A program made the translations under genes and the position numbers. A DNA stretch of 32,000 nt from an uncultured Chloroflexia bacterium. Its GTDB lineage: Bacteria; Chloroflexota; Anaerolineae; Anaerolineales; Anaerolineaceae. The notes under the pieces are model-generated. The model worked only from the letters and a program-made list of their open reading frames with translations. It ran no database searches and was not told the DNA's origin. Shown piece by piece: positions 1,793 through 23,599 of this stretch. Where the stretch lies: the NCBI GenBank assembly GCA_963704755.1, contig OY969938.1:3990001-4022000 (forward strand). Reading direction: 5' to 3'. How positions within the stretch are numbered: the stretch's first letter is position 1; every line of letters begins with the position of its first letter.

Positions 1793-1899
1793 AGCGGTAC
1801 GGTTGCCAGGCCGTAATTGATGAACCGAATCACACGCATGATCGGTGCTTTTTATTTAATTTGCGGCCGGCAGTCGAATCTTTTTTTAGGAGGTGCGGC

Positions 1900-2316
1900 G
1901 TGCCAGCGCCACGACTTTCACGCGGAAAGGTCATCAAACTTGATCGTCTATTGAATATGCTTTACAAACCGGGGGAAATCGCGGAAGAATTAGGCGTTTC
2001 CGTGGAAACGGTATACCGGTCATATATTCCGGCCGGGGCGCCTGTGATCCGGGAAGCCGGGATCATCTGGATCAATGGGGAAGCATTTCGCAAGTGGGCT
2101 GCAGACACAATCGCTACAACCCGCAGGGGAAAAATCAAACGGGAAATGACCGCAGGCCAGGGGTACTGTGTGCATTGCAACCAGGTAGTGGACATGATGG
2201 AGATTCGAATCAGGCCGCATTCCAAGAGGACCACGGTGGTCCAGGTTTCCGGCCGGTGCCCGACTTGCGGCGGGAAGGTCAACCGCCTGGCGAGAAAGGC
2301 GGATCTTCAGCAATGA
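1900..2316 (+). CDS. Excisionase-like HTH DNA-binding protein with C-terminal CxxC...CxxC zinc ribbon
   Basis: GTG at 1900, 6 nt after AGGAGG. Contains YKPGEIAEELGVSVETVYRSYIPAG (excisionase/MerR-type HTH) and CVHCNQ...CPTCGG. Its stop overlaps the integrase start (ATGA at 2313-2316). Confidence 0.7.
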   Translation: MPAPRLSRGKVIKLDRLLNMLYKPGEIAEELGVSVETVYRSYIPAGAPVIREAGIIWINGEAFRKWAADTIATTRRGKIKREMTAGQGYCVHCNQVVDMMEIRIRPHSKRTTVVQVSGRCPTCGGKVNRLARKADLQQ

Positions 2317-3296
2317 TCAACCGTCAAAACTGGCTGGACATCAAAGCTTTCTTGAAATTTCAGAAGGAGGTCAAGCAGGTGCATCCGTTGAGCGCTCAGG
2401 CGCAATGGTCGCGGTTACGGCACTTGCTCGAATGGGCGGAGGATAAACCTTTTGGAAAAGTTGCCAAAATTCGCCCTACCTTCCCAGCCTTTGCAGAGGC
2501 TCTGGTCAATGAGCAAGAAAATTTGCTATCAGCTTCGAGCTTGAATGCAATTTTCAAAACCAGCCGGACCTTTTTCAACTGGGCGCAAGAGGAATACCCG
2601 AGCAGATATAAAGCAATCGATCAAAGCTGGGTGCAAAGCCTGAGGCCATCGCGCGGAAGAAGCGAGAACGCAGAATTGCACACCAGAAAGTTGTACACGT
2701 TGAACGATGTACTGAAATTGATCGCCGTACCTGCTGAAACTGTAGCCCAACGCCGGCTCAGGGCGGCAGTGGCCTTCCTTTTCCTTTCAGGCATGAGAAT
2801 CGGTGCATTCGTGACGCTGCCGATCAAATGCGTCGACATCGGCGGCCGCCAGGTGGTCCAGGCTCCGGCCCTGGGCGTGCATACCAAAAATAGCAAAGCT
2901 GCGGTGACCTACTTGCTGAACATTCCACAGCTTTTAGAAGTGGTCAAAGAATGGGACAAAGAAGTTCGAGCTGCGCTTCCGGAGGACGCCTATTGGTACG
3001 CTCACCTGGACCAATTCGGTGAATTGACGGCCGAAAAGCCAAACGGAAACCGGGATAACGTGAGACACGACTTCCGCGACGAGCTGGTAGAAATGTGCCA
3101 GATGGCAGACGTCGAATACCTCTCCCCCCACAAGCTCCGGCATGGGTTTGCCGTGTACGCGCTGAAACGGGCCAAAACGCCGGCACAGATGAAGGCGGTG
3201 AGCCAGAACCTGATGCACTCAAACATTGGGATTACAGACGAGATTTACGCGAAACTGGTCAACGACGACGTGAGGGATTTGATCGGGGGATTGTGA
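2313..3296 (+). CDS. int: Tyrosine recombinase / phage-type integrase (island integrase 1)
   Basis: Begins MINRQNWLDIKAFL. Catalytic signature LSGMRIGAF (R), HKLRHGF (HxxR), LMHSNIGITDEIY (H...Y). The track ORF 2094..3296 is an upstream out-of-context extension. Confidence 0.9.
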   Translation: MINRQNWLDIKAFLKFQKEVKQVHPLSAQAQWSRLRHLLEWAEDKPFGKVAKIRPTFPAFAEALVNEQENLLSASSLNAIFKTSRTFFNWAQEEYPSRYKAIDQSWVQSLRPSRGRSENAELHTRKLYTLNDVLKLIAVPAETVAQRRLRAAVAFLFLSGMRIGAFVTLPIKCVDIGGRQVVQAPALGVHTKNSKAAVTYLLNIPQLLEVVKEWDKEVRAALPEDAYWYAHLDQFGELTAEKPNGNRDNVRHDFRDELVEMCQMADVEYLSPHKLRHGFAVYALKRAKTPAQMKAVSQNLMHSNIGITDEIYAKLVNDDVRDLIGGL

Positions 3297-3297
3297 C

Positions 3298-3339
3298 TAT
3301 AAAAAAGAGCCAATCTAAAACAGATTGGCTCTTTTTTTC
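3298..3339. terminator. Bidirectional intrinsic terminator after int
   Basis: 11-bp stem AGAGCCAATCT / AGATTGGCTCT with a 5-nt loop, flanked by an A-run (3298-3305) and a T-run (3333-3339). Confidence 0.75.
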
Positions 3340-3718
3340 TAAACACGAATGAGGGATGCAAGTAATTCAATGGCTAACAAGTCCAATATTCCACTTGAAG
3401 TTAGGTTGCCTGTTAGAGTTCGGCTAACTAGCCACCCAACAAGTAAAACTCGTCTAATCCAAATGAATGTTGCCCTTCGCTGGGTGTCTTCCCCTTCGTA
3501 AAAGTAATCGATACGCACATAGGCTGTTATACGCAATTTTCGAATTGAAGATCGAATTTTCAAAGTGCACCTTCCCACGGAGAGAGAAGAAAATAGTCGT
3601 ATTCATTTTTATTCTCCGGACATTGGTAGATGCACCAGCCTAAGGAGTCACGTCCAAACTCACTCTCACTGCGTCCTCTTAAAGTGCGTATAATACAAGA
3701 ACAAGTTGTGAGGACGTC
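3339..3718 (-). pseudogene. Frame-split paralog of the 111-aa ORF at 4389..4724
   Basis: The C-terminal part (ORF 3339..3578) ends ...VGWLVSRTLTGNLTSSGILDLLAIELLASL, versus ...LGWLCGRMISGELNPKEIVDLLAIELLGKL in the paralog. The N-terminal homology (EFGRDSLGWCIYQ vs DETHLGWCSNH) is in another frame and stops at 3560-3562. Confidence 0.45.
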
Positions 3719-4092
3719 CGATCCTGTTCTGCACCAATTTTTTGCATCGGTTTGTTACATATTGGTATCGGTGCTATAGAAACTAACCTAGCCTTACTTT
3801 GTTTCTCCTTTCTCTATGACCTCATCAAAATTATCATTAACTAATATTGAATACTGGCCTCACTGCTTAATGTTCTCTCTCACATTTGAATTTGCAGTGA
3901 TTTTTTTATTATTACATATTTTATAGATATATTCAACAAAAGTGCGAAAAGACCCCCGAATATTATATTTTTCAATTCTTTCGCTTAGAAATTCATTAGT
4001 AAAGCCCCATTCAAATTATCTATTTACAACGCGAAAAATAAAATTTCCGCATTGGAGATTACATGGAAACTAAAAACCATATAATTCTCTAG

Positions 4093-4344
4093 ATCATAAA
4101 AAAGAACTTGCGCTTAATTACATAGAAAATTTGATAATCAACCGTTTTAAGATAAACACGAAAAATATTTCACCACAAAAATTACAGCATGGTGATCCTG
4201 TTTGCGCTTTAAGTCAGGCTCTATCTCCAGTAAAAGTAACAATCCTCAGTAAAAAATCTGATGCACTCAACCTTTGACATTATGGACAAGATTCACGCTA
4301 AACTGGTCAACGACGACGTGAGGGATTTGATCGGGGGATTGTGA
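4093..4344 (+). pseudogene. Decayed AT-rich integrase remnant (3' third), frameshifted, catalytic residues lost
   Basis: 4170-4257 translates SPQKLQHGDPVCALSQALSPVKV, versus int1 SPHKLRHGFAVYALKRAKTPAQM. After a +1 frame change, 4258-4344 gives LMHSTFDIMDKIHAKLVNDDVRDLIGGL*, versus int1 LMHSNIGITDEIYAKLVNDDVRDLIGGL*. There are in-frame stops upstream. The last 45 nt are identical to 3252-3296. Confidence 0.7.
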
Positions 4345-4355
4345 ATAATAAACGT

Positions 4356-4390
4356 TAGAGGCTGCCCATTTAGGCAGCCTCTAGTTTTCT
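4356..4390. terminator. Intrinsic terminator hairpin after the integrase remnant
   Basis: 11-bp stem TAGAGGCTGCC / GGCAGCCTCTA with a 6-nt loop, then GTTTTCT. It abuts the stop of the reverse-strand ORF 4389..4724. Confidence 0.65.
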
Positions 4391-4724
4391 AAAAGTCAAA
4401 CAGTTTTCCAAGCAGCTCGATGGCCAGCAAATCAACAATTTCCTTTGGATTCAATTCTCCGGAAATCATTCGTCCGCACAACCATCCAAGAATTGCAGCT
4501 ATCTTGAGCCACTTGGCCACTTTTCCGACTTGAGCTTTGTTATTGAGGTAATACTGATGGGCTCTTGTAAAGGCTGTTTTTAGAACCTCCGAAAAGTGGT
4601 TACGGAAGTTCTCGATGCATCCAACCAGGTAGTAAATAATTGTGGACACTTCATGTCCGGTACGATGGTTGCTGCACCAGCCTAAATGAGTCTCGTCCAC
4701 AACCCATTCTCGCCGTACCCCCAA
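4389..4724 (-). CDS. Hypothetical protein (111 aa), paralog of the split copy at 3339..3718
   Basis: Open frame in an AT-rich region with a conserved paralog. The start is uncertain (TTG 4724 or an internal GTG) and no strong RBS is visible. Confidence 0.5.
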   Translation of the reverse strand: MGVRREWVVDETHLGWCSNHRTGHEVSTIIYYLVGCIENFRNHFSEVLKTAFTRAHQYYLNNKAQVGKVAKWLKIAAILGWLCGRMISGELNPKEIVDLLAIELLGKLFDF

Positions 4725-5061
4725 AACCGGTGCAACCAGCTAAACACAACGGTTAGGAGATACTCCGCGCCGTTGGGTAGCCAGTTATCGGACTGGGCTC
4801 GAACGGTCAGCGGTGAGCTGGACAAAACATCATTCACCTGCATTACAAATCATTTAGCTTTTTGCGATATTCCTCCTTCCTTTTTGGTGAGGTAGCCTTA
4901 GCTACTCTCGGTGATTAAAAATATTTCTGCCATAGTGGCTCAAATATATTATTACCACTTTGATCAATTAATTCAATAATACTTAATGATTAATTGGTCG
5001 TAAATATTTTGAATTTTTGGTATACAATAATAGAAATTATGTTCTTGCTGACGAGGTTCTC

Positions 5062-5841
5062 ATGGAAGCTAACAACGACATCCAAATCTGGCAGGGGGAT
5101 TGTTTTGAATTGATGCAGCGGATCCCAGACCACACGGTGGACGCGATTATCACCGACCCGCCCTACGGCACCACCGCCCTGCCCTGGGACAAGAAGCTGG
5201 ACCTGGACGCCTGGTGGACGGAGGCCAAACGGGTAATCAAAATAAACGGGATCATCGCCATGTTTTCGGCCCAGCCGTTTACGACCGACCTGATCAATTC
5301 GAACCGCAAGTGGTTTCGCTACGAGCTGATCTGGAAGAAGTCGATGGCAGCCGGCTTTCTAGACGCCAACCAGCGACCGATGCGCATCCACGAGAACATC
5401 GTGATCTTTTCGCAATACTTCCGGCGCTCGAACGACGGCAAACGGGCTGCTACTACCTACAACCCGCAGTTTACCCTGGGCCGGCCCTACAAGCAGAGCG
5501 GCGGGGCCATGAGATCCAAACATTACAACTGGAAGGGAGAATTACCCGCGAAAGAGAATGATGGGCGGCGTTACCCGGTGGACGTACTGGATTTTCCCAA
5601 CGGGAACCACAATTCGCTGCACCCGACGCAAAAGCCCTTAGAACTGGTGAGCTGGCTGGTGCTGACCTACACCCAGCCGGGTGAGCTGGTGCTGGACCCC
5701 TTCGCCGGCTCCGGAACGACGCTGGCAGCCTGCCGGCAAGCGGGCCGGCGCTGTATAGGCATGGAACGGATGCCCGATTACGTTACAACCATCGAAAGAC
5801 GATTGAGTGAAATCGCTCCTGCACCAACAAAGTCGACATAA
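5062..5841 (+). CDS. Beta-class DNA methyltransferase (DPPY, probably N6-adenine), no cognate nuclease evident
   Basis: ATG at 5062 (MEANNDIQIWQGDCFELM). Motif IV is IITDPPYGT, upstream of motif I LDPFAGSGTTLAACRQAGRRCIGME. The gene is GC-rich and flanked by AT-rich DNA. Confidence 0.9.
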   Translation: MEANNDIQIWQGDCFELMQRIPDHTVDAIITDPPYGTTALPWDKKLDLDAWWTEAKRVIKINGIIAMFSAQPFTTDLINSNRKWFRYELIWKKSMAAGFLDANQRPMRIHENIVIFSQYFRRSNDGKRAATTYNPQFTLGRPYKQSGGAMRSKHYNWKGELPAKENDGRRYPVDVLDFPNGNHNSLHPTQKPLELVSWLVLTYTQPGELVLDPFAGSGTTLAACRQAGRRCIGMERMPDYVTTIERRLSEIAPAPTKST

Positions 5842-5851
5842 GAGCTGCTAA

Positions 5852-6604
5852 TTATTTTTCTTCATCAAGCGAGGCCAAATTACCCCGAACAATTTTTATA
5901 TTGGGGTGGTCAGCAGGCAAGAATTTCACAAGGATCTTCAGCGCCCGCTCGTAGCTGGCTTTGGCGCCGGCCAGATCCCCCAGGGCTTGCAGCACACTCC
6001 CCAGGTTGTTGACATCCCCGGCGACATCCGGATGATCCGGCCCATAGACCGCTTCGTCGATCTTCAGCGCCCGCGCGAAGCTGGCTCTGGCGCCGGCCAG
6101 ATCCCCCAGGGCTCGCAGCACAGCCCCCAGATTGTTGACGCCCCCGGCCACCCGCGGATGATCCGGCCCATAGACCGTTTCGAAGATCTTCAGCGCCCGC
6201 TCGTAGCTAACTCTGGCGCCAGCCAGATCCCCCAGGGCTTGCAGCACACTCCCCAGGTTGTTGACGGTAGTAGCAACTTTCGGATGCTCCGGCCCATAGA
6301 CCGCTTCGACGATCTTCAGCGCCCGCTCATAGCAGGTTCTGGCGCCGGCCAGATCCCCCAGGTCTCGCAGCACACCCCCCAAGTTGTTGACATCTGTAGC
6401 CACCTCCGGATGATCCGGACCATAGACCGCTTCGTCGATCTTCAGCGCCCGCTCGTAGCTGGCCCTGGCGCCGGCCAGATCCCCCAGGGCTCGCAGCACA
6501 CCCCCCAGGTTGTTTACACGAATGGCGACCTGCGGATGATCCGGCCCATAGACCGCTTCGTCGATCTTCAGCGCACGCTCGAAGGCAGATTTGGCTAAAT
6601 CGTA
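5852..6604 (-). repeat. 126-bp tandem coding repeats (about 6 units) encoding the TPR array
   Basis: Near-identical 126-nt units are visible directly, e.g. the recurring GATCTTCAGCGCCCGCTCGTAGCTGG...CCGGCCAGATCCCCCAGGGC. Confidence 0.9.
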
Positions 6605-8245
6605 TCTGGTAATATTTAGGAGGTTCAACCCGAAAATATTTAGAATTCTTGATTGTGATCTTAACTTATCAGTTGAACCCAAAGAGCAAAAATGTTGCAG
6701 GTGGGGATGCAACGGTAAGTAATTGGTCGGCAATCCGGAATCATAGGCTTTTCCAGCCAGGTCTATAAACGCCTCTCCTATTTCGTCGAGAGTTTGGTCT
6801 TGTCCTTCAGCAGAGACAGCACTGGAAAAGGCCGAAAGTAGAGGGTGGATCAAAAAGCCGGATGTAGATCGTTCAAGCACGCCCAAAGAACATACGGTTT
6901 TGATTGCCCGGTCGAAATCGCTTTCCTCTTCAACGCCCGATGCCTTGAGCAACAATTCCCTGGGGATGGGATTGCCAGGCGCACACCAGCCGGCCAATAG
7001 GAAGATTTTGCGGGATAAAACTTTATTCTCGTTATTCCCAGCTAGCCGATCCAAACTCATTTTGAACGTTGCAGCCAGGCTGGTTTCGTGTTGAGTGGGA
7101 CTGCCTTCGACCCAATCCAACAGCGAGCTATGCTGCAATAAATTTTCCTGTTCAGCCACCTCGGCTAAATAGCCGTCGGCCGTGAGTGTTTCACGGTCGT
7201 TCAAGTAGTGGCCGGCCAGGTCGATTGCTAATGCCAGATAGCCCAGTTTCGCCGAAATCTGATCGAGTTGATCGTCGGGAAGATCCTTCAAACGTTCAGC
7301 CAATTTTCGTAGAAGGTCCCGGCATTCTTCGACGCTGAGCAGACCAAGCGGCTGCGATTGCAAGCCCAGGTCGGCTGGCCAGTCGAGCCGGCGGGCGGTG
7401 AGCAACAGACGGGAAGCGCTTAGCCTGGGCATCCAATTTCGCAATATCTCGGGGTCTTCGAGGTTATCCAAAATCACAAGCCGGCGCTTACTTGCCTTCC
7501 AAACGCGGAGGGTGGCGGCGACCTGGTCAGGGACTTGTTCCGGCCAGGGATCGATACCCATTTCACGGCCGCATTCGCTTATTTCGGTATCAATATCGGT
7601 ATCGCGGCAGTTGATCCAATGAACACCTTGGAAATAGCGACCGTAACGATAACAAAACTCGACGGCGAGCTGGGTTTTGCCGATGCCGCCCATGCCGGTG
7701 ACGGCTTCGATTTGGGTCACGGCCACGTTGGTAGGTCGTTCCGCATAGATCAGGTCATCCGCCAGGGTAAGCAGGTCGGTTTCGCGGCCGGTGAAGACAG
7801 CGTTGCGGGTATGGGGCATACGCGAGCCCGGCAAAGGATCGCCAACCTTTGGGAGTTTACCTCGCGGAGGCAACTTTGGTAATTTCTTTTCCAGCTCTTC
7901 CGGAGATGCCTTTTCGTCTTGTGAGGGGCCAATAGTCACGTGATCCGCGTGCTCAATAGTAGTTCGACTACCTCCAATTTGGTCAGCGTCAATTTTCTTA
8001 GCGATTATATTTATCCCATTACCAGTTTGTGTATTTTTATTTTCTGTTGTATTCGATTTTTCGGGTTTTCCGTAGATCTTTATGAGGTTTGCAGCGACTG
8101 ACGTCACTGAAACAATGGCTGCACCGATTATGATAAGTAATGCGTATACACTGCGGTTTGGAGAAATTAAATAACTTACGCCAACCACGAAAAAAATTGC
8201 AAGGAAAAGATAAAGTGTTATGCGTGATCGAAGGATTTTGTCCAT
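5852..8245 (-). CDS. STAND NTPase: N-terminal 2-TM segment, NB-ARC-type ATPase, C-terminal TPR array
   Basis: ATG at 8245 (MDKILRS). Two hydrophobic helices (LYLFLAIFFVVGVSYLI; ALLIIIGAAIVSVTSVAANLI). Walker A GMGGIGKTQLAVEF (7673-7696), Walker B RRLVILDNLED, LLLTARR, then about six 42-aa TPR units YERALKI.EAVYGPDHP.VA..VNNLG.VL.ALGDLAGA. Confidence 0.9.
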   Translation of the reverse strand: MDKILRSRITLYLFLAIFFVVGVSYLISPNRSVYALLIIIGAAIVSVTSVAANLIKIYGKPEKSNTTENKNTQTGNGINIIAKKIDADQIGGSRTTIEHADHVTIGPSQDEKASPEELEKKLPKLPPRGKLPKVGDPLPGSRMPHTRNAVFTGRETDLLTLADDLIYAERPTNVAVTQIEAVTGMGGIGKTQLAVEFCYRYGRYFQGVHWINCRDTDIDTEISECGREMGIDPWPEQVPDQVAATLRVWKASKRRLVILDNLEDPEILRNWMPRLSASRLLLTARRLDWPADLGLQSQPLGLLSVEECRDLLRKLAERLKDLPDDQLDQISAKLGYLALAIDLAGHYLNDRETLTADGYLAEVAEQENLLQHSSLLDWVEGSPTQHETSLAATFKMSLDRLAGNNENKVLSRKIFLLAGWCAPGNPIPRELLLKASGVEEESDFDRAIKTVCSLGVLERSTSGFLIHPLLSAFSSAVSAEGQDQTLDEIGEAFIDLAGKAYDSGLPTNYLPLHPHLQHFCSLGSTDKLRSQSRILNIFGLNLLNITRYDLAKSAFERALKIDEAVYGPDHPQVAIRVNNLGGVLRALGDLAGARASYERALKIDEAVYGPDHPEVATDVNNLGGVLRDLGDLAGARTCYERALKIVEAVYGPEHPKVATTVNNLGSVLQALGDLAGARVSYERALKIFETVYGPDHPRVAGGVNNLGAVLRALGDLAGARASFARALKIDEAVYGPDHPDVAGDVNNLGSVLQALGDLAGAKASYERALKILVKFLPADHPNIKIVRGNLASLDEEK

Positions 8246-8498
8246 ACCAGCCCCCAATTTCGATGTAACTCATTATGACTATTTTTCCTTTGAAATTCAA
8301 CCTGGTGTTCCGAAAGCTGGTACTGACCTCTCCCAATCCCTGCAAGTTGTGATTGGATTTATTTGCCGAATCCGAAAAATAACTACTGGCCTTTAAAATA
8401 AACACTCGTTGGGTATGGGCATCGAGTATTACAAAGAATATTTATATGTTTGCATCACTCGCCTGGAGAAGGCCACATATAACTAGCTGAGAATTTTT

Positions 8499-9779
8499 CT
8501 AATTAGAAGCATTTTCGAGAAGGGTTAGTTTACATATTTTCAAAAACGCCGACATCCCTTCAACCAATTCAATTACACTGGCCATTACATCGATGTTTCG
8601 CTCCCAAAATAATCTGTCCACCAATTCCTCGGAAGTCCTATTAAATTCTAATAAAATATCTACTAATTCCTTGTCACGAAAAGAGAATGAATTTGAATTT
8701 GTCCTTCCTGAATATTCCGAAAAAATTCTTAAGCTAACATCCCGAAGGGAATCATCAGGGACTTCAACTTCATATGATTTATTAATCGGTAGTAATCGGT
8801 GAAATGCTTTATTTCTGGCCTTTGCTATTTGGTCTTTATAGTCGGACAGTTTGGGTTTTGTATTTTGGGTTGCCCAAGGTAAATTCCTCAATGCTGTAGA
8901 AAAACCATATTGATAACGAAAGGTGCCCAATAATACGATGGGCTTTAGATCCCCTACCTGACCTAAAAGCCTTACTATTTTCATTGCGTCGTCAGTGAAA
9001 TTATAGGCTATGCGTAGGATTTCTGTCGAAAGAGGTAGATCTAGATCAGATATATCGAAGTTAACTATTTCTTCTTTATATTTTTTTAATTGGTCTTTCA
9101 AGGGAAGAACTAAACTATCTAAGAAATATACAGTATCTGTTTTAATCGTCTTTGGAATAACCAAACGAGCATAAGATTCTTTTTGTAAAAGATGGAATGC
9201 ATCCATCAATGCCCGCCTAAGTATTGATTTCACATCATCGCCAACATTACCTATATTTTCTTCAACATATTGCCAGATTTGGTAAGTCTCATCAAGATTT
9301 CTAACCTTCAGAATTCCATTATTGAGAATTGCTGGTTGTGGTAAAGAAGAATCCAGAACTACCTTTGAAATTAAGGCATGGTCTACGGGAGATTCAAAAA
9401 TTAAACTGTCATCAATTTCACTAATCAAAATGAAGACTAATTCACCTAGGGAGTTTAATTGTTTCTTTACAAACTCAGCCAAAGGAATTACTTCGGAAAT
9501 TTTTGAATCGTTTTTCGAGACAAACGAATAATCTTTATTAATAGCTAATCCATTTAATACAAAAACATCATTCTCTTGAACTATACTTTTTTCAGCCAAA
9601 ATACCTAGGTAATGATCACTTTTCTTGGTTTTTACTTTCGTGTCACGAAATGGGAAAGAGTTATTAATTAGGAAATATTTATTCTCAAGTCCTGACATCG
9701 AACTCTTAATGCTAGACCAATCGATAATATTTAAGAAACCATTAATTTGATTTAATATTTGGTCGATTATCGTATTCAT
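8499..9779 (-). CDS. Hypothetical 426-aa protein with two HEPN-like R-x4-6-H motifs
   Basis: Long open frame in AT-rich DNA, 51 nt downstream of the MTase-Mrr gene on the same strand. Contains SILRRALMDAFHLL (R189..H196) and IAKARNKAFHRLL (R322..H327, nt 8816-8799). No other motif recognised. Confidence 0.75.
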   Translation of the reverse strand: MNTIIDQILNQINGFLNIIDWSSIKSSMSGLENKYFLINNSFPFRDTKVKTKKSDHYLGILAEKSIVQENDVFVLNGLAINKDYSFVSKNDSKISEVIPLAEFVKKQLNSLGELVFILISEIDDSLIFESPVDHALISKVVLDSSLPQPAILNNGILKVRNLDETYQIWQYVEENIGNVGDDVKSILRRALMDAFHLLQKESYARLVIPKTIKTDTVYFLDSLVLPLKDQLKKYKEEIVNFDISDLDLPLSTEILRIAYNFTDDAMKIVRLLGQVGDLKPIVLLGTFRYQYGFSTALRNLPWATQNTKPKLSDYKDQIAKARNKAFHRLLPINKSYEVEVPDDSLRDVSLRIFSEYSGRTNSNSFSFRDKELVDILLEFNRTSEELVDRLFWERNIDVMASVIELVEGMSAFLKICKLTLLENASN

Positions 9780-9830
9780 ATTGCCCTCCTAATTCGATTC
9801 TGAATTCAATAGTGACACATTGGAACAAGA

Positions 9831-11489
9831 CTAAAACCCAAACTCTCCTTGAGTTCCTTCCTGTCTCTTGACCCGCTGAGCCTTCTTAAATGCTCCATAA
9901 GCAGGCGGCATTTGGACCTTTTTGCCAGCTAACAATTCCTCTATTGTTAGTATTTGCAGCCGCGGATATTTCTGCTGCCAGAAGTCAGAGGTATAAAATC
10001 CGGCTGAAACCGCCTCTGTGATCATGTCTGAGGAAGGTTTTTCGAGTGTAATCAGAACCCCAATCGTTGAATTATCCCGTTCTATGGTTCCTCGCAAATC
10101 TCTTATCGTAGCAGAATTGACATGGCCGCTTTTCACCTGGATAACCACCTGTTTAGGTTTTCCAGAAGCATCATCCAAGTAAGGAATAAGCCCGTCAACA
10201 CCTTTGTCAGATCCCTTTTTCCCTTTCTTGCTGCCCTTTTCGCCACCTAACGGCCTAGCCTCGATGAGGGACAAGGCCCACCATTGGAATTGATAGCGAT
10301 CTTCCGAAGCAAGCTGGTAGGCCGATTGGATATCTTCCGGTTCACCAACGATCTGATAATCCTTGCCAGGGTCAAGGTTAAACATGTCCTTTAGCCTGGA
10401 TTTGTGCATAGCAATAGCCAGGTGAGTAACATCAATGCCTATCCACTGACGATTTAATTTCTGAGCCGCAGATATTGCTGATCCACACCCACTAAAAGGG
10501 TCTAGCACAATATCGTTTTCTCTGGATGAAGATTGGATTATTCTTTCCAATAAGGTTAATGGTTTTTGAGTTGGATATCCCAACCGTTCGGCCGAGGAAG
10601 CCTGAAGAGGCGGAATATCTATCCAAACATCAGTGATTTTTGGCCCTTCCTGGTCGTTTAGATAAACCTTTCTCCGAATTCTGCCATTTTTAATAGGTGG
10701 AAAAATCAATCTCCCGTCATCATCTAAGGTCGCCATTAATCGTTTATTTACCCGCCATCCTTTAGGAGGGGGAGGATAACCTTTATATTCGAAAGTCAAA
10801 TTTGGACGGGGATTAGGGCTATCAAGGGGAGCACTTTGATAAGGGCCACGGCCATCTCCATCATCGAATTTAAACCTTGATAAATATTCTTCATCTTGGT
10901 TGCCAAAAACCGACAAAAAATAATATTTGCTCGACTTTCCATAAAGCAAAATTACATCATGTACAGAGCCAAATTTTCTTCGAACATCACCTTTTACCGC
11001 AGTTCTTTGCCAAATAATTTCATTGATTACATTATCAGGCCCAAAAATCACATCCATTAGGATTTTTAAATAATGACTAGCCGTTGGATCACAATGCAAA
11101 TAAAGGCTTCCTGTAAGTTTTAACACCCGGTGTAATTCAACTAATCTAGCAGCCATCATGACCAGGTAAGCCATCATTTGGTTTGTGCCAACGAATTGGC
11201 GAAGTGCTGCAATCATTTGACCAACCTGAACGTTTTCTCCGGTCACTAGTTCGTTATAAATTTCTTCAGCCGATGGCCCCCAATGCCAGGTATCATCGAA
11301 AGCGGAAATCTGCGCTTCAGCGGCCTGGCCTGATTCGTCCTTGAAAAGAATGTTGTAAGATCGGTTTGAGTTGAACGGAGGATCCAGGTAGATTAAATCG
11401 ACCGATTCGGTTGGAATATATTCTCGTAGGACTTTTAGATTATCACCATAGTATAACGTGTTCAATGAATTCTCCTCAGCCAACCACAT
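9831..11489 (-). CDS. Beta-class DNA methyltransferase fused to a C-terminal Mrr-like PD-(D/E)xK nuclease domain
   Basis: LIYLDPPFNSNRSYN (motif IV) lies before VLDPFSGCGSAISAAQKLNRQWIGIDV (motif I). The C-terminus has DKGVDGLI...VVIQVKSGHVNSATIRDLRGTIE...IGVLITLEKPS, resembling the Mrr catalytic core (GxDG...QxK). Confidence 0.88.
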   Translation of the reverse strand: MWLAEENSLNTLYYGDNLKVLREYIPTESVDLIYLDPPFNSNRSYNILFKDESGQAAEAQISAFDDTWHWGPSAEEIYNELVTGENVQVGQMIAALRQFVGTNQMMAYLVMMAARLVELHRVLKLTGSLYLHCDPTASHYLKILMDVIFGPDNVINEIIWQRTAVKGDVRRKFGSVHDVILLYGKSSKYYFLSVFGNQDEEYLSRFKFDDGDGRGPYQSAPLDSPNPRPNLTFEYKGYPPPPKGWRVNKRLMATLDDDGRLIFPPIKNGRIRRKVYLNDQEGPKITDVWIDIPPLQASSAERLGYPTQKPLTLLERIIQSSSRENDIVLDPFSGCGSAISAAQKLNRQWIGIDVTHLAIAMHKSRLKDMFNLDPGKDYQIVGEPEDIQSAYQLASEDRYQFQWWALSLIEARPLGGEKGSKKGKKGSDKGVDGLIPYLDDASGKPKQVVIQVKSGHVNSATIRDLRGTIERDNSTIGVLITLEKPSSDMITEAVSAGFYTSDFWQQKYPRLQILTIEELLAGKKVQMPPAYGAFKKAQRVKRQEGTQGEFGF

Positions 11490-11739
11490 TTTTATGTTTC
11501 AATACGTATTCAACCAGGTTTTGATCATAATTTGTTCGATCTATCTTTGAAGTGCGAAACACCACAGCTCTTATTTTCGCATAAACCCAATCAACATCAA
11601 AGCCATACTCTCTCATATTTTTTAAAATAGTCGTAAGGGTTTGCCTATTCTCAACTTGGATTTTAATTACCTCCTTCGCTTTGGAAACGCTAATTTCCCT
11701 TTTCATTTTTGTAGTTATAACAGGTGTTACAGATATCAT
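11476..11739 (-). CDS. Small hypothetical protein (87 aa or shorter), first gene of the cassette
   Basis: Overlaps the MTase start by 14 nt, suggesting translational coupling. No recognisable motif, and the start codon is uncertain. Confidence 0.5.
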   Translation of the reverse strand: MISVTPVITTKMKREISVSKAKEVIKIQVENRQTLTTILKNMREYGFDVDWVYAKIRAVVFRTSKIDRTNYDQNLVEYVLKHKNVVG

Positions 11740-12036
11740 TGAGGTTTTCCCGGACTCTGGTTTTTGTCCAAGTTTTGGATTGAACGTAATTAAATTACTT
11801 GAAAGCTTAGTTTGGGCGTTTATAAGGTCCTTATTTTAATTTAGCTATCTCCAATTCTTTTTGTTGAATATTCCCAGTTAGGGAATCTGTTTCACTATCA
11901 ATAGCATCAATTTTCGTTTCGGCCAAAGATTTTTTCATTTCAATAATTTTTTCATGTAACTCTATGACCTTTCCCCAAATCAGTAGACACGAATGAAGGG
12001 TGAGAGATGTACAGTAAAAGGGAACGGAGGAAGGTC

Positions 12037-12345
12037 ATGAGTGACAAGAAATATCGAGAATACACCGATGAGTTCAAGCGGGAAGCGTTAGAGCTGCTGA
12101 AAAGCAGCGGGAAGAGTGCAGGACAGCTTGAGCGGGAACTGGGGATAACGCCAGGGATGTTGCTAAAGTGGCGGGATCGATACGAGGTGGTGTTGCCAGA
12201 GAACCAGGAGCCGAAGCTGGTACCGAGTGATTTAGAAGCGGCCAAAAGGGAGATTGTGCGTTTGCAACGGGAGCTGAAGGAGATAGCCGAAGAGCGAGAG
12301 ATCCTAAAAAAAGTAGTCAACATTTTCTCCCGGAAAGGCGGATGA
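12037..12345 (+). CDS. IS3-family transposase OrfA (HTH)
   Basis: MSDKKYREYTDEFKREALELLKSSGKSAGQLERELGITPGMLLKWRDRY, with GGAGGAAGG upstream. A leucine-zipper-like tail precedes the A AAA AAA G frameshift site. Confidence 0.9.
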   Translation: MSDKKYREYTDEFKREALELLKSSGKSAGQLERELGITPGMLLKWRDRYEVVLPENQEPKLVPSDLEAAKREIVRLQRELKEIAEEREILKKVVNIFSRKGG

Positions 12346-13199
12346 AGTACACGTTTATGGCTGCCCACGAAGAGCAATTTCAGATCAAGCGGATGTGCCG
12401 GATGCTGAGTGTGAAGCGCAGTGGGTATTACGCCTGGCGGAAACGAACGCCCAGCACGCGGGAACAAGCCAACCAGGCTCTGCTGGAGCTGATTACAGCA
12501 GAGCATGAGCGCAGCCGGAAAACATATGGCAGCCCGCGTGTGTACGTGGTTCTGCGGCGAAAAGGGGTAGTGTGTGGGCATAATCGGGTGGCACGCCTGA
12601 TGCGTTTGCATGGGATCGCAGCCCTTGCAAGGCGCAAGTACCGTCCAGTGACCACCCACCGCCAGCCAGGGGCGATTCCTGCCCCCAACCGGCTGAACCA
12701 GGACTTCTCCGCCTCTGCCCCCAACCAGAAATGGGTCAGTGATTTTACCTACATCGAGACCGGAGAAGGCTGGTTGTATCTGGCCGTGGTCTTGGACTTG
12801 TTCTCCCGCAAAGTGATTGGGTGGTCGATGAGCCAGAAGATGGACACCGCCTTGGTAGAAACAGCTTTGCGTATGGCCCTCCTGGGACGTCATCCACCGG
12901 CTGGCCTGCTGCACCACTCCGATCAGGGCAGCCAGTACACCAGCGCTGCCTACCGCTCCTGCTTGACCGAAGCTCTGGCCCAACTGAGTATGAGCGGGGC
13001 TGGCAACTGTTACGACAATGCGGTCATGGAGAGTTTCTTTGGCACTCTGAAAACCGAATGCGTTACGGGTCCATTTCTTACCCGTACCTTGGCTCGCACG
13101 ACCATTTTTGAATACCTGGAGGTTTGGTACAATCGCCAACGACTACACTCTACTTTGGGCTACCTCAGCCCCGTTGATTTCGAAAACCTCACCCTTTAA
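12342..13199 (+). CDS. IS3-family transposase OrfB (DDE/rve integrase core), normally expressed as OrfAB by -1 frameshift
   Basis: Contains WVSDFTYIETGEGWLYLAVVLDLFSRKVIGW, HSDQGSQYTS and YDNAVMESFFGTLKTE (D, D, E regions). The -1 frame is open from 12312 into orfB. Confidence 0.9.
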   Translation: MKYTFMAAHEEQFQIKRMCRMLSVKRSGYYAWRKRTPSTREQANQALLELITAEHERSRKTYGSPRVYVVLRRKGVVCGHNRVARLMRLHGIAALARRKYRPVTTHRQPGAIPAPNRLNQDFSASAPNQKWVSDFTYIETGEGWLYLAVVLDLFSRKVIGWSMSQKMDTALVETALRMALLGRHPPAGLLHHSDQGSQYTSAAYRSCLTEALAQLSMSGAGNCYDNAVMESFFGTLKTECVTGPFLTRTLARTTIFEYLEVWYNRQRLHSTLGYLSPVDFENLTL

Positions 13200-13781
13200 C
13201 TATGTCTACTAAACCGGGGAAAGGTCACTATGACCTCAGAATATTGAGAGCTAATATCCGCTTCAGGAACTAAATCTTTCCAGTCTTCTATTGAATTTAT
13301 TATTTCTTCTTGAATTTGAATACTTCGTAAAACCACTTCATCAAAAAACACCTTCTGGATTGGGGTCAATCGATCTTCTTTTGTTTTAGATAGTTGCCCC
13401 ATTGAATCGCCAATTCTTTCTCCCAAATCGACTACCATCCTATTTACCGATTTCAAACCCCTTATCGCCGATTCTCCGCGTATTTTTAACCTTTCATTTC
13501 GGCTTTTTTCATCCCACAAATTTGCAATTAATCCACCTAATAGACCTGTCATTAATGTTAATAGAATATTCACAAACGCAGAAAGAACGACGTTCTTGGG
13601 TAAAAATATTGAAAAACACAGAAATAATAATGATAAAATAATTACGATAAATACCGGGGGAAAAAATAAAATTTTTACAAGTTTTTCCCATTCCTCGCGG
13701 ATTGTAGCCTTTTTTATCATTTGTAGGAATTCCTTTTTGCACAATTATCAATACACAAAAAAAGGATTAAATAAAACACCG

Positions 13782-14711
13782 TTACCTTAGCGCCCTTCTC
13801 CATCCATTGGTCTGGGCTTCTTCTTCGGTGCAGAACCACTTCTCCCCTTTTTCCGGGGAGATCTTCGTTTTATCATAGTCACGTTGCCCCGGCATGTGAT
13901 AAATTTTCTCACCGCTAGAGGAGATGTTGCCCTTGATATCGCACCTGGGCAGCTCCGTGGTGCAGCCGGTCGGACATTGGCCGACGGATTGGGTAGTCAA
14001 AACAATTTGGGTATCTGTGGGCTTTATTGCCCAGACGCCCATAACTTCGGCTTTCGCCTGATCCTGGGCCTGATGGAAGAATTCATGGCAGATAGTATCT
14101 GGAGGGTATTCTTTGGCGACGGCCATGCCGTCCCTCACCAGCTCATAATTGACAAAAACGTTATCAACCAAGACATATCGGAGTAAACGGTCGTACGGAT
14201 CCGTTTCCGACACATCCTTTATGAGGACGACCGTCTTTCCTTCTACCATCCCTGAGTTCTCTTTTGTGGCCAGGTCAGCGACCGGGTTTCCGCTGTTCAG
14301 TTCGGGAGTGTCGACCCCAATGTAACGGACTGGGTAGTCAACTCCATCGATCTCGACGTGGATCGTATCACCGTCCACTATACGGGTCACCTCTCCCACC
14401 TGCATTGCATCCTTCCCGGCTAAGCATCGATACAAATCACCATATCCCAGCGCCGATGGTTCGGCGCTTTCAACTTTTTCCTGTTCTGTTGGCGTCGAAA
14501 TCGCGATCACTGTATTTGTCGATACAAGTTGAACGGATTCAGTGAATGTTATGGTTGTTTGTATTGTTGCGCTTTCAGCCGTATCTTTCTCGGGGTTTCC
14601 AGGGATTAAAGCAACACCCACACAACACAAAATCACCAGGCCTAATATTCCTAGTGCAATATTCCTCATTTGTTTTTCTCTTAAATAGGTTTTTTTCTTC
14701 CCATCCCCCAT
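13782..14711 (-). CDS. Membrane-anchored/secreted thermonuclease (SNase-like) with Cys-rich C-terminal domain
   Basis: N-terminal hydrophobic anchor NIALGILGLVILCCVGVAL. SNase core VTRIVDGDTIHVEIDGVDYPVRYIGVDTPE...DRLLRYV...NYELVRDGMA. C-terminal CDIKGNISSSGEKIYHMPGQRDYDKT...WFCTEEEAQTNGWRRA. Confidence 0.85.
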   Translation of the reverse strand: MGDGKKKTYLREKQMRNIALGILGLVILCCVGVALIPGNPEKDTAESATIQTTITFTESVQLVSTNTVIAISTPTEQEKVESAEPSALGYGDLYRCLAGKDAMQVGEVTRIVDGDTIHVEIDGVDYPVRYIGVDTPELNSGNPVADLATKENSGMVEGKTVVLIKDVSETDPYDRLLRYVLVDNVFVNYELVRDGMAVAKEYPPDTICHEFFHQAQDQAKAEVMGVWAIKPTDTQIVLTTQSVGQCPTGCTTELPRCDIKGNISSSGEKIYHMPGQRDYDKTKISPEKGEKWFCTEEEAQTNGWRRALR

Positions 14712-14738
14712 AGGGTTCCCCTTTTTATCCGATACAAA

Positions 14739-15470
14739 TCAATCTTTTGCATTACCTTCCCCAGGCACCCTCAAGATGCCGGCAACAAACGTAAGGACTG
14801 CCCCGAGGAAAACGACGTACGGACCGGGGCCGACCAGAACGGTTACGTACTCGGTCGTTTGCGCGCTGACGTCCATTAGCGAGCCATAGTCGACCGCCAT
14901 TATCACGAATAGCAGTAAGCCCAGGGGGATCAGAGGCCAGGAATAAATGCGGCGCTGTTTTCCCAGGTGAAATATAGCGACGAAGCCAATCCCGACGCCG
15001 GCCGCGAAGAAGAAAGGCCCGTCCCCGGACATGCCGCTTTTCGAGGCCGAACCAAAGATGGAGAGCAGGCTGCCCCAAGGGAGAATGGCTCCAACGATCA
15101 AGAAGACGGCTGCTAAACCGGCCAATAGGTTGCCTGTATGCCGGCGGGTGGCTTTGAGCGCCTGGGAAGTCGGGTCCAGATCAGGATCGTAAGCCCGAAG
15201 CTCGACTTCCTTTTCGACTGCAAATTTTTCGAGCCTGGTCATCTTTTTTTGGATGTCGTTCAGATCGCGCGTCCCGATGAGGAGCCAGAAAAAGGCAACG
15301 CCGATGAGGACCAGGCCGATAATGAGAATAGGGCCGCCGACAATACAGGAAGCGATGCCGGCAAGTAAAATGCCCAAAGCTATCTTGAGCGAGTTTTTCT
15401 GCCCGAAAAACTTTCTGGAGGTGTCAAAATATTCTGATTGAAGATCGATGCTGTGTTCCACTTTGCCCAC
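14739..15470 (-). CDS. Polytopic membrane protein, function unknown
   Basis: GTG start. Several long hydrophobic segments (ALGILLAGIASCIVGGPILIIGLVLIGVAFFWLLI; LLAGLAAVFLIVGAILPW; FFFAAGVGIGFVAIF; LIPLGLLLFVIMAV; VVFLGAVLTFVAGIL). Confidence 0.7.
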   Translation of the reverse strand: MGKVEHSIDLQSEYFDTSRKFFGQKNSLKIALGILLAGIASCIVGGPILIIGLVLIGVAFFWLLIGTRDLNDIQKKMTRLEKFAVEKEVELRAYDPDLDPTSQALKATRRHTGNLLAGLAAVFLIVGAILPWGSLLSIFGSASKSGMSGDGPFFFAAGVGIGFVAIFHLGKQRRIYSWPLIPLGLLLFVIMAVDYGSLMDVSAQTTEYVTVLVGPGPYVVFLGAVLTFVAGILRVPGEGNAKD

Positions 15471-16109: not shown

Positions 16110-16128
16110 TAGCATATGGAGAATAAAC

Positions 16129-16419
16129 ATGGTTTCCACAATCCAGGAAATAACAATCAAATACCTGGAAGGCAAGACCCTGGACGAATTCGCCGCGGGT
16201 TTAGGTATTGGCACCAGCCGGCAGAGTGTGCACCACTGGAAGGAAGGGAACCGCACACCCAACCCGATGACGCTCTTCATGGTTTTGGCCAGCTCGAAGT
16301 CGACCGATTGGGCCAGGACCTGGGCATCCGAATGCCTGAAGGTATTGCAACGGCCCAGCCTGGCAAAGAATCAATCGCCGGAACCAAATCTCGAACATCT
16401 AATGCAAGGGGAGAAATAG
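16129..16419 (+). CDS. Cro-like HTH regulator
   Basis: ATG at 16129 after GGAGA. LDEFAAGLGIGTSRQSVHHWKEGNRTPNPMTLFMV is an HTH_3-like helix-turn-helix. It is divergent from the repressor. Confidence 0.75.
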   Translation: MVSTIQEITIKYLEGKTLDEFAAGLGIGTSRQSVHHWKEGNRTPNPMTLFMVLASSKSTDWARTWASECLKVLQRPSLAKNQSPEPNLEHLMQGEK

Positions 16420-16427
16420 AAACCATC

Positions 16428-17393
16428 ATGAACGATCCTGAAACAGCGATCACCTGGACGGTGGCGCCTTCTTCCACCTGGGAAGAGGCGTACCGGTTGT
16501 GGCTGGCCGGGCTGCACGCCGAAAACACCCGGCGGGCTTACGACCAGTCTTTCGAGGATTTACGCCGCTTCGTGGGCGGCAACCCGGAGCACGTCAGCCG
16601 GGCGGACGTGGCCCGCTGGATGGAGGACATGCGCAAACGCAACCTGAGCAAATCTACCATCAGCATGCGCCTGGCGGCCGTCTCCAGCTTTTACAAATTC
16701 ACCGAAAACACCTTCGACGACCTGCTGCCGGCCGGCAACCCGGCGGCCGCCAGCGACCGACCCAAGGTCTCGTTGTACGGCAAGGCCAGCTACCTCTCCC
16801 CCACCGAAGCCAAGGCGCTGCTGCGGGCCATCGACCGCAAGAAGGTGCAGGGCCGGCGCGATTACGCCCTGTTCCTGGGTTACCTGATGACCGGCCGGCG
16901 CAACAGCGAATGGCGCTGCGTGCGCTTCGGCGACTTCGTCAACAAGGGCACGCGGGTGCTGTACCGCTGGTCGGGCAAGGGTAAATCGAACGTGCTGTCC
17001 GAGCTGCCCATGCCGGTGTGGGAGTCGATCCTGGAGCTGCTGCAGGCAGACGGGCGCTCGAAAACGATCCAGACGGGGGATTACATCTTCGCCCCCTTCG
17101 CCGATTCGATCCACCGTAAGGAATGGGACAGCAGCCGGCCGGTGGGCGCGCGCGACGTTTTGCAGTTGTTAAAGACCTACGGGCGCAGGGCCGGCCTCAA
17201 CCCGGCCATGCTGCGGGTGCACATGCTCCGCCATTCCGCCGCGATGCTGCGCAAAGAAGCCGGCGACGACGTGGAATCGATCTGTAAATTCCTGGGGCAT
17301 TCCAGCCTGGCGATTACCCAGATCTACCTGCACCAGGTGGAAGGGCGCTCCGACCAGTCCTGGGCGACGGTGGCCCAGATGCTGGGGCTTTGA
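16428..17393 (+). CDS. int: Tyrosine recombinase / phage integrase (integrase 2)
   Basis: Begins MNDPETAITW. N-terminal SAM-like domain (NTRRAYDQSFEDLRRF...SKSTISMRLAAVSSFYKF). Catalytic GRRNSEW (R), HMLRHSAAM (HxxR), LGHSSLAITQIYLH (H...Y). Confidence 0.9.
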   Translation: MNDPETAITWTVAPSSTWEEAYRLWLAGLHAENTRRAYDQSFEDLRRFVGGNPEHVSRADVARWMEDMRKRNLSKSTISMRLAAVSSFYKFTENTFDDLLPAGNPAAASDRPKVSLYGKASYLSPTEAKALLRAIDRKKVQGRRDYALFLGYLMTGRRNSEWRCVRFGDFVNKGTRVLYRWSGKGKSNVLSELPMPVWESILELLQADGRSKTIQTGDYIFAPFADSIHRKEWDSSRPVGARDVLQLLKTYGRRAGLNPAMLRVHMLRHSAAMLRKEAGDDVESICKFLGHSSLAITQIYLHQVEGRSDQSWATVAQMLGL

Positions 17394-18456: not shown

Positions 18457-18529
18457 TGCCCCTGCCCAGATTCGAACTGGGATTTTCCACTTCGCTAAAG
18501 TGAGGTCTTATCCATTAGATGACAGAGGC
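18457..18529 (-). tRNA. 73-nt tRNA, apparent anticodon AGC (A34, G37), no encoded CCA; identity uncertain
   Basis: The reverse strand folds as GCCTCTG-TC-ATCT-AATGGATA-AGAC-C-TCACT-TTAGCGA-AGTGG-AAAAT-CCCAG-TTCGAAT-CTGGG-CAGGGGC-A. It has a 7-bp acceptor, U8, A14, GG in the D loop, T54-T55-C56 and A58. A TTGAAA -35 box (18566-18561) and an A/T-rich -10 lie just upstream of the 5' end. Confidence 0.75.
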
Positions 18530-23135: not shown

Positions 23136-23599
23136 TGCCTACCTACGCTAAAGAAACCACCGTGCCGGTCGAGCGCTCCAAGGGCGAGATCGAGCGGACG
23201 CTGCAGCGCTACGGCGCCAGCGCATTCCTATACGGCTGGGACCGCGACCGGGCAGTAGTCGGCTTCGACGTGGACGGCCGGCGATACCGCATCACCCTGG
23301 CGATGCCCAGCCGGGACGAATTTCGCCGCACCGAAACCGGGCGGACCCGCTCCAGCCAGGCGGCCATCGAGGCCGCCTGGGAGCAGGCCACCCGGCAGCG
23401 CTGGCGGGCACTGGCGCTATGGATCAAGGCAGTGCTGGAGGCGGCCGAGGCCGGGATCGTCTCGCTGGAAGAGGCGCTGCAGCCGTTCACCGTGCTGCCC
23501 AATGGGCAGACGGCCGGCCAGTGGCTGGCCCCGCAGATCGAGGCGGCGTATCAAACGGGAAGAATGCCGGCAATGTTGCCGGGAGGAGGCGGAATATGA
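23135..23599 (+). CDS. Hypothetical phage protein (154 aa)
   Basis: The ATG overlaps the ParB stop (TAATG). GC-rich codon usage is consistent with the neighbours. The track ORF 22391..23599 only becomes genuine from 23135. Confidence 0.65.
   Translation: MPTYAKETTVPVERSKGEIERTLQRYGASAFLYGWDRDRAVVGFDVDGRRYRITLAMPSRDEFRRTETGRTRSSQAAIEAAWEQATRQRWRALALWIKAVLEAAEAGIVSLEEALQPFTVLPNGQTAGQWLAPQIEAAYQTGRMPAMLPGGGGI

Follow-up and report, generated by a model that had tools for sequence, protein, structure and literature searches.

A restriction-modification-associated protein family with a single HEPN-type motif, a candidate defense effector, in the mobile cargo of an uncultured Anaerolineaceae genome

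Genes and base composition at the locus

The DNA stretch analyzed here (the window) comprises 32,000 nucleotides (nt) from an uncultured Chloroflexia bacterium of the family Anaerolineaceae (assembly GCA_963704755.1, contig OY969938.1, positions 3,990,001 to 4,022,000). Our subject is a run of three open reading frames (ORFs) on its minus strand and, above all, the 426-amino-acid (aa) product of the third, referred to as p426. A preliminary description of this DNA had proposed that the three genes form a defense cassette in which a DNA methyltransferase (MTase) carrying an Mrr-like nuclease domain is linked to a partner with two HEPN-like RNase motifs. The ORF calls place an 87-aa ORF at 11476 to 11739, a 552-aa MTase-Mrr gene at 9831 to 11489, and the p426 gene at 8499 to 9779, with a 14-nt overlap between the first two and 51 nt between the MTase-Mrr gene and p426, which confirms exactly the arrangement first described. 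The spacer (9780 to 9830, minus strand) contains an AGGAGG ribosome-binding site 6 nt upstream of the p426 ATG, and the minus strand shows nothing resembling a terminator there. The strong ribosome-binding site and the absence of a terminator there suggest that the MTase-Mrr gene and p426 are co-transcribed.

GC content is 0.33 to 0.47 over positions 8000 to 12000 and 0.50 to 0.65 in the flanks. By gene, it is 0.335 for p426, 0.432 for the 552-aa gene, and 0.341 for the 87-aa ORF, compared with 0.54 to 0.56 for neighboring genes of the mobile element described below. These values agree with the AT richness noted earlier, but the low-GC block is larger than had been thought, extending beyond 8499 to 11739, past an IS3-family element (11965 to 13227), and into a 215-aa ORF that this element interrupts. 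Further low-GC patches (0.31 to 0.37, against a background of ~0.6) lie at 3501 to 4500 and 23501 to 25500 and suggest additional foreign insertions.

The methyltransferase-Mrr fusion and the 87-aa ORF

By its domain matches, the 552-aa protein is a fusion of a beta-class N6/N4 MTase and an Mrr-type PD-QxK module (aa ~419 to 520). The N6_N4_Mtase domain (PF01555) covers residues 30 to 355 (E = 1e-40; 140.5 bits versus a cutoff of 26.7), and DPPF (residues 36 to 39) precedes DPFSGCGS (residues 330 to 337); together, these confirm the beta-class motif order that had been read from the letters. At the C terminus, NA-iREase1 matches residues 422 to 520 (E = 1.3e-7, above the gathering score) and Mrr_cat (PF04471) matches residues 419 to 487 (E = 5e-6; 27 bits versus a cutoff of 21), and D428, D432, Q451, and K453 are invariant among 24 homologues, so that the earlier identification of an Mrr-like PD-(D/E)xK core also holds. 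Because this D428/D432…Q451-x-K453 core is invariant, the module looks functional rather than decayed. PADLOC assigns the protein to its MTase_II and MTase_III models only, and the nearest PDB relatives are beta-class MTases and Type III Mod subunits (E = 1e-10 to 1e-18). The 552-aa protein thus shares PF01555 and the order of motif IV before motif I with M.RsrI, M.MboIIA, CcrM, and EcoP15I Mod and shares the C-terminal D…QxK core with the Mrr/Mrr_cat nuclease family, but it differs from the beta-class MTases and Type III Mod subunits in uniting a methylase and an Mrr-type module in one polypeptide.

At least 8000 database homologues of this fusion were found at E ≤ 1e-20, and the top 120 are 529 to 572 aa long and 60 to 79% identical, with nearly all of them carrying the same three Pfam domains. 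The family is extremely abundant and, at this level of identity, unusually conserved across phyla. Its members are labeled merely “DNA methyltransferase” or “restriction endonuclease” in databases, and a literature search found no functional study of the fusion, which may be a single-chain restriction-modification (R-M) enzyme or may use the Mrr fold for DNA binding alone. For comparison, we fetched three loci with MTase-Mrr homologues (L049, L050, and L051; 66 to 78% identity) and 48 loci with a p426 homologue (47 distinct), giving 51 in total. In L049 and L051, the MTase-Mrr gene sits in elements bearing integrase and helix-turn-helix genes, after a gene for a 183-aa (NYN) protein, and in L050 it stands alone among housekeeping genes, as members of this family often do; none of the three loci contains a p426 homologue. 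The fusion is therefore a common, widespread, autonomous, and already-annotated family that normally occurs without p426 or the 87-aa gene.

Among 5.8 billion proteins, the 87-aa ORF has no match but itself; it also has none in Pfam, PADLOC, or NCBIfam and shows no similarity to anything in the 51 fetched loci, even at E = 10. That it might be a remnant of the 183-aa (NYN) gene of L049 and L051 was ruled out, as the two share no similarity. We regard it as an ORFan and as a putative gene.

An unannotated protein family

Database searches found 91 homologues of p426, none with a function name or a Pfam domain, and a profile search among 1.84 billion proteins returned 426 cluster representatives at E ≤ 1e-3. 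That search returned the p426 family only, with no bridge to known families among the matches listed. Among the 150 family matches listed, full-length proteins have ~420 aa, the shorter ones look like fragments, and each match is one single stretch with no sign of fusions. Searches of Pfam (2025), NCBIfam (2026), and PADLOC-DB v2, including its HEC and PDC models, gave no match to p426; 40 aligned members scanned against Pfam and PADLOC showed no recurrent family, and the PADLOC matches were scattered singles. There is no sequence relative in the PDB, the family profile run against all PDB sequences giving one spurious match (E = 0.15), and tblastn against plasmid and phage collections gave no match. 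These scans support the earlier statements that p426 has no helicase or classical restriction endonuclease (REase) motif and that no named defense system can be mapped onto the locus, as neither p426 nor the 87-aa protein matches any PADLOC-DB v2 family. By these searches, the p426 family is unannotated, compact, and of a single architecture, without a detectable PDB relative. Homologues in five loci (L031, L038, L039, L047, and L048) are split into two ORFs or truncated, and the split is the same in L038 and L039. Such copies are either decaying or the product of faulty assembly.

The AlphaFold2 model of p426, built from the 40-sequence alignment, has a pLDDT of 85.5 and a pTM of 0.79 and predicts an alpha/beta domain (aa 1 to 175; 9255 to 9779, minus strand) followed by a helical domain (aa 181 to 426). 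An insert of ~60 residues (~330 to 388) within the helical domain is poorly modeled (pLDDT 41 to 65). The N-terminal domain carries the near-invariant motifs NNSFxFR (39 to 45) and KTxK (50 to 53) as well as G112, and it gave no significant fold match and no match to a P-loop or ATPase family. A PD-(D/E)xK site in this domain was ruled out, since the 40-sequence alignment contains no invariant acidic residue there. In a larger alignment of 237 full-length members (22 to 74% identity), ~20 polar or aromatic residues are essentially invariant across the family; apart from the RNxxxH motif discussed below, the essentially invariant positions include R45, G112, R256, Y259, D277, K279, K308, Y314, D369, W392, and N395.

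A 30-nt imperfect direct repeat (77%) occurs inside the p426 gene, at 8664 to 8693 and 9633 to 9662. The two copies encode NSFSFRDKE (aa ~362 to 370, in the insert after RNxxxH) and NNSFPFRDTK (aa 39 to 48, the invariant N-terminal motif), and the family consensus at the former site is N.L.Y.DKELVD. The two segments may form similar strands.

One conserved HEPN-type motif

The preliminary description attributed two HEPN-like motifs to p426. Exactly two R-x4-6-H strings are indeed present (R189…H196 and R322…H327), but composition-preserving shuffles of the protein contain one such string in 40% of cases and two in 8%. The first string (codons 9192 to 9215, minus strand) is an unconserved chance match: R189 is an arginine in 2 of 40 homologues and H196 a histidine in 1 of 40, and in the 237-member alignment these columns are dominated by E/Q and D/E, with neither R nor H among the four commonest residues. 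R189/H196 was therefore ruled out as a HEPN motif, and with it a tandem or dual HEPN arrangement in p426.

The second string behaves differently. The sequence A-R322-N323-K-A-F-H327, which contains the HEPN-type Rx4H motif (codons 8799 to 8816, minus strand), is kept in every member of the 40-sequence alignment (A1), and among the 237 members R322 is present in 236, N323 in 228 (with S in another 8), and H327 in 235, including all seven Type I-embedded copies shown there. The motif closes a predicted helix (311 to 326 in the full AlphaFold2 model; 311 to 329 in a model of the C-terminal domain), and a long terminal helix (389 to 425) follows after the ~60-residue low-confidence insert. In HEPN domains, Rx4-6H lies at the end of helix 3, at the start of the loop to helix 4 of a four-helix up-down bundle, and a polar residue (N, D, or H) directly follows the conserved arginine (PMC3710099). 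Inserts are also known in these domains; Csx1, for one, has a beta-hairpin that immediately follows the motif (PMC3710099). With one conserved Rx4-6H per protein, a polar residue after the arginine, and a position at the helix end, the p426 family would fit a single HEPN domain rather than a tandem pair.

Genomic neighborhoods of the p426 family

The 48 p426 loci come from Chloroflexota, Acidobacteriota, Actinomycetota, Bacteroidota, Omnitrophota, Planctomycetota, Verrucomicrobiota, and one myxobacterium. When neighboring genes within 6 kb were clustered, three recurrent families emerged besides the query, and these are HsdM, HsdS, and HsdR of Type I R-M systems, as confirmed by Pfam for L011 and L001. 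Type I hsd genes lie within 6 kb of the p426 homologue in 14 of the 47 distinct loci, and in eight loci (L011, L022, L024, L025, L027, L033, L039, and L046) the homologue starts ≤4 nt from the stop codon of hsdS or hsdM on the same strand. Embedding in Type I hsdMSR operons thus applies to between 8 (translationally coupled) and 14 (within 6 kb) of the 47 loci, and it does not apply to the window copy. In L025, the gene order is hsdM-hsdS-X-GmrSD-hsdR, where X is the p426 homologue, a PrrC-like position. For a gene picked at random, the chance of having a Type I hsdM within 6 kb would be far below 1%; this is a rough estimate rather than a computed control, and measured against it the ~30% proximity seen here represents strong enrichment.

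Other immediate neighbors include Type ISP R-M enzymes (L007 and L008), an Eco57I/TaqI_C MTase (L037), GmrSD_N (L026), DUF499 (L044), nSTAND3 together with an SMC-like ATPase (L035), an SF1 helicase (L010), CHAT (L036), HipA (L014), a NucS-like nuclease (L012), and integrases (L015). In L013, the p426 homologue lies between genes for a 1444-aa DUF6079/BrxC-like ATPase and an 861-aa N6_N4 MTase (5615 to 13836 of that locus), and both L013 and L016 look like BREX-like or other multigene systems with p426 embedded. The p426 family is therefore associated with DNA-modification and restriction genes, and it recurs in defense islands, often inside a Type I R-M operon or as its last gene.

These neighborhoods bear on the idea that p426 is the cognate Type II REase of the upstream MTase. 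REases are typically unannotated and fast evolving, p426 lies immediately downstream of the MTase gene and is probably co-transcribed with it, and a few homologues abut other MTases (L003, L013, L016, and L037). At least eight homologues, however, belong to Type I operons, complete or partial, in which HsdR is already encoded, and many have no MTase nearby (e.g., L004, L021, and L040), a situation that would be lethal for a true REase. In addition, p426 matches no nuclease family and has no invariant acidic triad, its alpha/beta domain lacks even a single invariant acidic residue, and it does not co-occur with the MTase-Mrr family, whose members, at 60 to 79% identity, usually have no p426 partner. 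We consider this explanation extremely improbable.

The same loci allowed the three-gene proposal to be examined directly. Neither the Mrr module nor the 87-aa protein had a tblastn match in the 48 p426 loci; distant beta-class MTases adjoin the p426 homologue in only three of them (L003, L013, and L016). The trio of 87-aa ORF, MTase-Mrr, and p426 is absent from all 51 related loci, and the linkage of p426 with MTase-Mrr is likewise not conserved (0 of 48 p426 loci and 0 of 3 MTase-Mrr loci). A dedicated three-gene system, in which DNA modification would be coupled to a dual-HEPN, RNA-targeting partner, draws on the co-oriented and tightly spaced genes, the strong ribosome-binding site without a terminator before p426, the low GC content of all three genes, and the tendency of the p426 family to adjoin MTase-containing systems of several types. 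Against this stand the nonrecurrence of the combination, the ORFan status of the 87-aa ORF, the lack of conservation of R189/H196, unequal GC contents at third codon positions (MTase-Mrr, 0.39; p426, 0.29), and the fact that the closest homologues of each gene sit apart in related mobile elements. The co-occurrence test has largely refuted such a system, which we now regard as highly improbable, and the three-gene, dual-HEPN arrangement is not supported. What survives of the proposed DNA-modification-linked context is that the p426 family is associated with R-M genes, although not with MTase-Mrr.

Cargo of an integrative element

Judging by the surrounding genes, the locus belongs to the variable cargo of an integrative element that occurs in Anaerolineae-type genomes. 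The core genes comprise a 151-aa ORF (1861 to 2316), a tyrosine integrase (2094 to 3296, plus strand; 62 to 67% identical to the integrases of L003 and L051), a 274-aa N6_N4 MTase (5017 to 5841, plus strand; 69 to 73% identical to the convergent small MTase of L003 and L051), an SNase-domain protein (13782 to 14711), and a 243-aa ORF (14739 to 15470). All five have counterparts that are 42 to 73% identical and in the same relative order in both L003 and L051. An element whose core genes lie within 1861 to 15470 and include a convergent small MTase of ~250 to 274 aa is thus common to the window, a Bellilinea metagenome-assembled genome, and a metagenome contig (L003 and L051). Between the SNase gene and the small MTase lies a hotspot of variable cargo, in which each copy holds different defense-like genes.

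In L003, the cargo consists of DUF2513, DUF4145, three small ORFs, and a 74%-identical p426 homologue directly before the convergent small MTase, without MTase-Mrr, and in L051 it consists of NYN, MTase-Mrr, DUF2513, and KTSC, without p426. The window cargo comprises the IS3-split 215-aa ORF, the 87-aa ORF, MTase-Mrr, p426, and an NB-ARC/TPR STAND protein. Because L003 and L051 each carry one of the two genes without the other, MTase-Mrr and p426 appear to be separate modules that are adjacent by chance, and their difference in third-position GC content agrees with this. The window locus is therefore a set of independently mobile cargo genes.

Mobility raises the question of whether p426 serves the element itself (e.g., in regulation or maintenance), with its proximity to R-M genes arising as accessory genes hitchhike together. 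The window copy and the L003 copy of p426 both lie in an integrative element, some other loci have integrases or transposases close to the gene (L015), and some copies have housekeeping neighbors. This explanation is nonetheless highly improbable, since homologues are translationally coupled inside Type I operons in several phyla, no match was found in phage or plasmid collections, and the ~20 essentially invariant polar or aromatic residues look enzyme-like.

Directly downstream of p426, and also within the cargo, is a gene for an 801-aa NB-ARC and TPR STAND nucleoside triphosphatase (5852 to 8257, minus strand), which may be an Avs-like defense gene. Its N terminus is strongly hydrophobic, with about two predicted membrane helices, and it is not found at the equivalent position in L003. 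On the other side, the IS3-family element (11965 to 13227, plus strand; orfA, 12007 to 12345; orfB, 12342 to 13199; rve domains) has 40-nt imperfect terminal inverted repeats and a perfect 3-bp target duplication (CTA). It interrupts a low-GC ORF (GC 0.342, minus strand) whose 5′ part lies at 13228 to 13744 and 3′ part at ~11831 to 11964. Deleting the IS3 element and one CTA copy restores an ORF of 215 aa, which has no homologue in any fetched locus; the low-GC block would thus originally have held four co-oriented genes, and the insertion looks recent. A second tyrosine integrase (16116 to 17393, plus strand) lies ~1 kb from a tRNA-Ala gene (18457 to 18529, minus strand), a possible attachment site either for this element or for another.

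Relation to known restriction-linked HEPN proteins

At least 16 HEPN clades have been linked to R-M systems, and an analogy to PrrC has been proposed for them (PMC3710099). PrrC, of the EcoprrI Type Ic R-M operon, and RloC resemble members of the p426 family in that a single gene encodes them within a Type I hsd operon or at its end, as the L025 order likewise illustrates, and all have a C-terminal helical domain with Rx4-6H and have been proposed as latent second-line effectors. They show no sequence similarity to p426, however, and carry an N-terminal ABC (Rad50/SbcC-like) ATPase; the corresponding part of p426 is an alpha/beta domain of ~175 aa that lacks a P-loop and belongs to no recognized family. 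Unlike PrrC, p426 also occurs with Type ISP, BREX-like, GmrSD, and beta-class MTase neighbors, as well as alone.

The R-M-linked HEPN clades of Anantharaman et al. 2013 (among them Abi2/AbiD/AbiF, AbiJ, AbiU2, ApeA, DUF4145, EC042_2821/DUF3644, and Ymh) likewise occupy R-M neighborhoods and have the same form of motif as p426, an arginine and a polar residue followed by the histidine at a helix end. Their Pfam models match none of the 40 p426 members at E ≤ 1, and p426 differs from them in the unusual insert of ~60 residues that separates its motif helix from its terminal helix. A further parallel is offered by HEC-08 and the PDC candidates, which were found embedded in Hma, Type I R-M, BREX, or DISARM systems (Payne et al., bioRxiv 10.1101/2024.01.29.577857). 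Defense by HEC-08, a HEPN protein, depends on the histidine of its Rx4-6H motif, and “guilt by embedding” in Type I R-M, BREX, and DISARM systems has experimental support for other families (bioRxiv 10.1101/2024.01.29.577857). Like these candidates, p426 is embedded in defense systems, but HEC-08 has an N-terminal DUF3644 HEPN domain and zinc ribbons, and p426 matches no HEC or PDC model in PADLOC-DB v2. Overall, the insertion of p426 into Type I operons parallels PrrC/EcoprrI and the R-M-linked HEPN clades and fits guilt by embedding. R-M-associated HEPN/Abi-type effectors are thus known as a class; what is new is the p426 family, absent from Pfam, NCBIfam, and PADLOC-DB v2, for which the HEPN fold is putative.

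Proposed role of p426

We somewhat favor the reading that the locus is a run of cargo genes rather than a dedicated three-gene system and that p426 is a self-contained, R-M-associated sensor-effector with a single HEPN-type motif. It is a candidate HEPN-like abortive-infection effector and thus a plausible new anti-phage effector. Other single-HEPN proteins need subunit pairing to form an RNase site, and two p426 subunits could likewise pair through the C-terminal domain, joining their two RNxxxH motifs into a metal-independent RNase site. The N-terminal alpha/beta domain would sense the trigger or keep the enzyme inactive. The trigger might be infection or failure of the neighboring restriction system, whereupon p426 would cut tRNA, rRNA, or mRNA, translation would stop, and the infection would be aborted. 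In this role, p426 would act as a second line of defense behind restriction, analogous to PrrC with EcoprrI.

Several observations weigh against this reading. About half of the loci have no R-M gene nearby, and some show only housekeeping neighbors, such as ribonucleotide reductase (L021) or a tannase-like protein (L040). The co-transcription suggested for MTase-Mrr and p426 in the window may indicate local functional coupling between them. That the partner systems vary so widely speaks against a specific protein-protein latch of the PrrC kind, and we accordingly favor autonomy with co-expression. With regard to the fold, no sequence or structure search ties p426 to an established HEPN family. 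The best Foldseek matches in the PDB were generic helical bundles with E values of 0.37 (full model) and 0.78 (C-terminal-domain model), and nothing fell below E ≈ 0.4 in BFVD; a HEPN entry, 4nqf, appeared at rank 22 with E = 4 and was discarded as meaningless. An hhalign comparison of the p426 domain profile with the DUF4145 HEPN protein of L003 gave a probability of 0.2%, and the Pfam scan of the 40 members found no recurrent family. The insert of 60 residues between the RNxxxH helix and the last helix is atypical for HEPN domains and poorly modeled, and the invariant residues R45, R256, Y259, D277, K279, K308, and D369 could constitute a different active site.

Some other catalytic helical domain is therefore the main rival to HEPN. 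Under this alternative, p426 would still be a defense effector or enzyme, for example, a DNase, an NTP- or NAD-consuming enzyme, or a sensor of a nucleotide signal, and the R, N, and H of the motif, together with D277, K279, K308, R256, Y259, and D369, would form another catalytic or ligand-binding site in a new helical fold. Such a protein would account for the failed profile and fold searches, the many invariant polar residues outside RNxxxH, and the large conserved insert after it, and the defense-island context suits it equally well. Yet HEPN is the sole classical signature present, with its polar residue after the arginine and its helix-end position, and Pfam, NCBIfam, and PADLOC recognize no P-loop, HxK, HNH, or PD-ExK motif; we judge this alternative unlikely, if to be taken seriously. 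The Foldseek and profile searches identified no other fold either, and a HEPN fold for the C-terminal domain has roughly even odds. The preliminary proposal thus stands in part: R189/H196 and the linkage to MTase-Mrr fall away, whereas R322/H327 is conserved and the structural comparisons, which yielded no HEPN match, placed p426 in no non-HEPN fold.

Implications for antiviral defense

Going further, we tentatively propose, at slightly less than an even chance, that p426 founds an undescribed family of stand-alone anti-phage effectors across seven phyla (Chloroflexota, Acidobacteriota, Actinomycetota, Bacteroidota, Omnitrophota, Planctomycetota, and Verrucomicrobiota). Its members would join a new alpha/beta sensor to a catalytic domain that is either a highly divergent HEPN or wholly new, and Type I, Type ISP, and BREX-like operons would repeatedly have taken up the gene as a backup that is triggered when DNA-level restriction fails. 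Lineages that carry p426 (Anaerolineae, Acidobacteria, and uncultured Actinobacteria) are poorly sampled by defense catalogues, and no annotation model recognizes the family. The window also holds a cautionary lesson, in that tight spacing and shared low GC content within mobile-element cargo mimicked a convincing but nonrecurrent “system.” With its one-gene architecture and a clear mutational target in R322/H327, p426 is directly testable. If the family does act as an RNase-type effector built into R-M operons, it would add a new and taxonomically broad module to the layered, DNA-then-RNA defenses exemplified by PrrC/EcoprrI.

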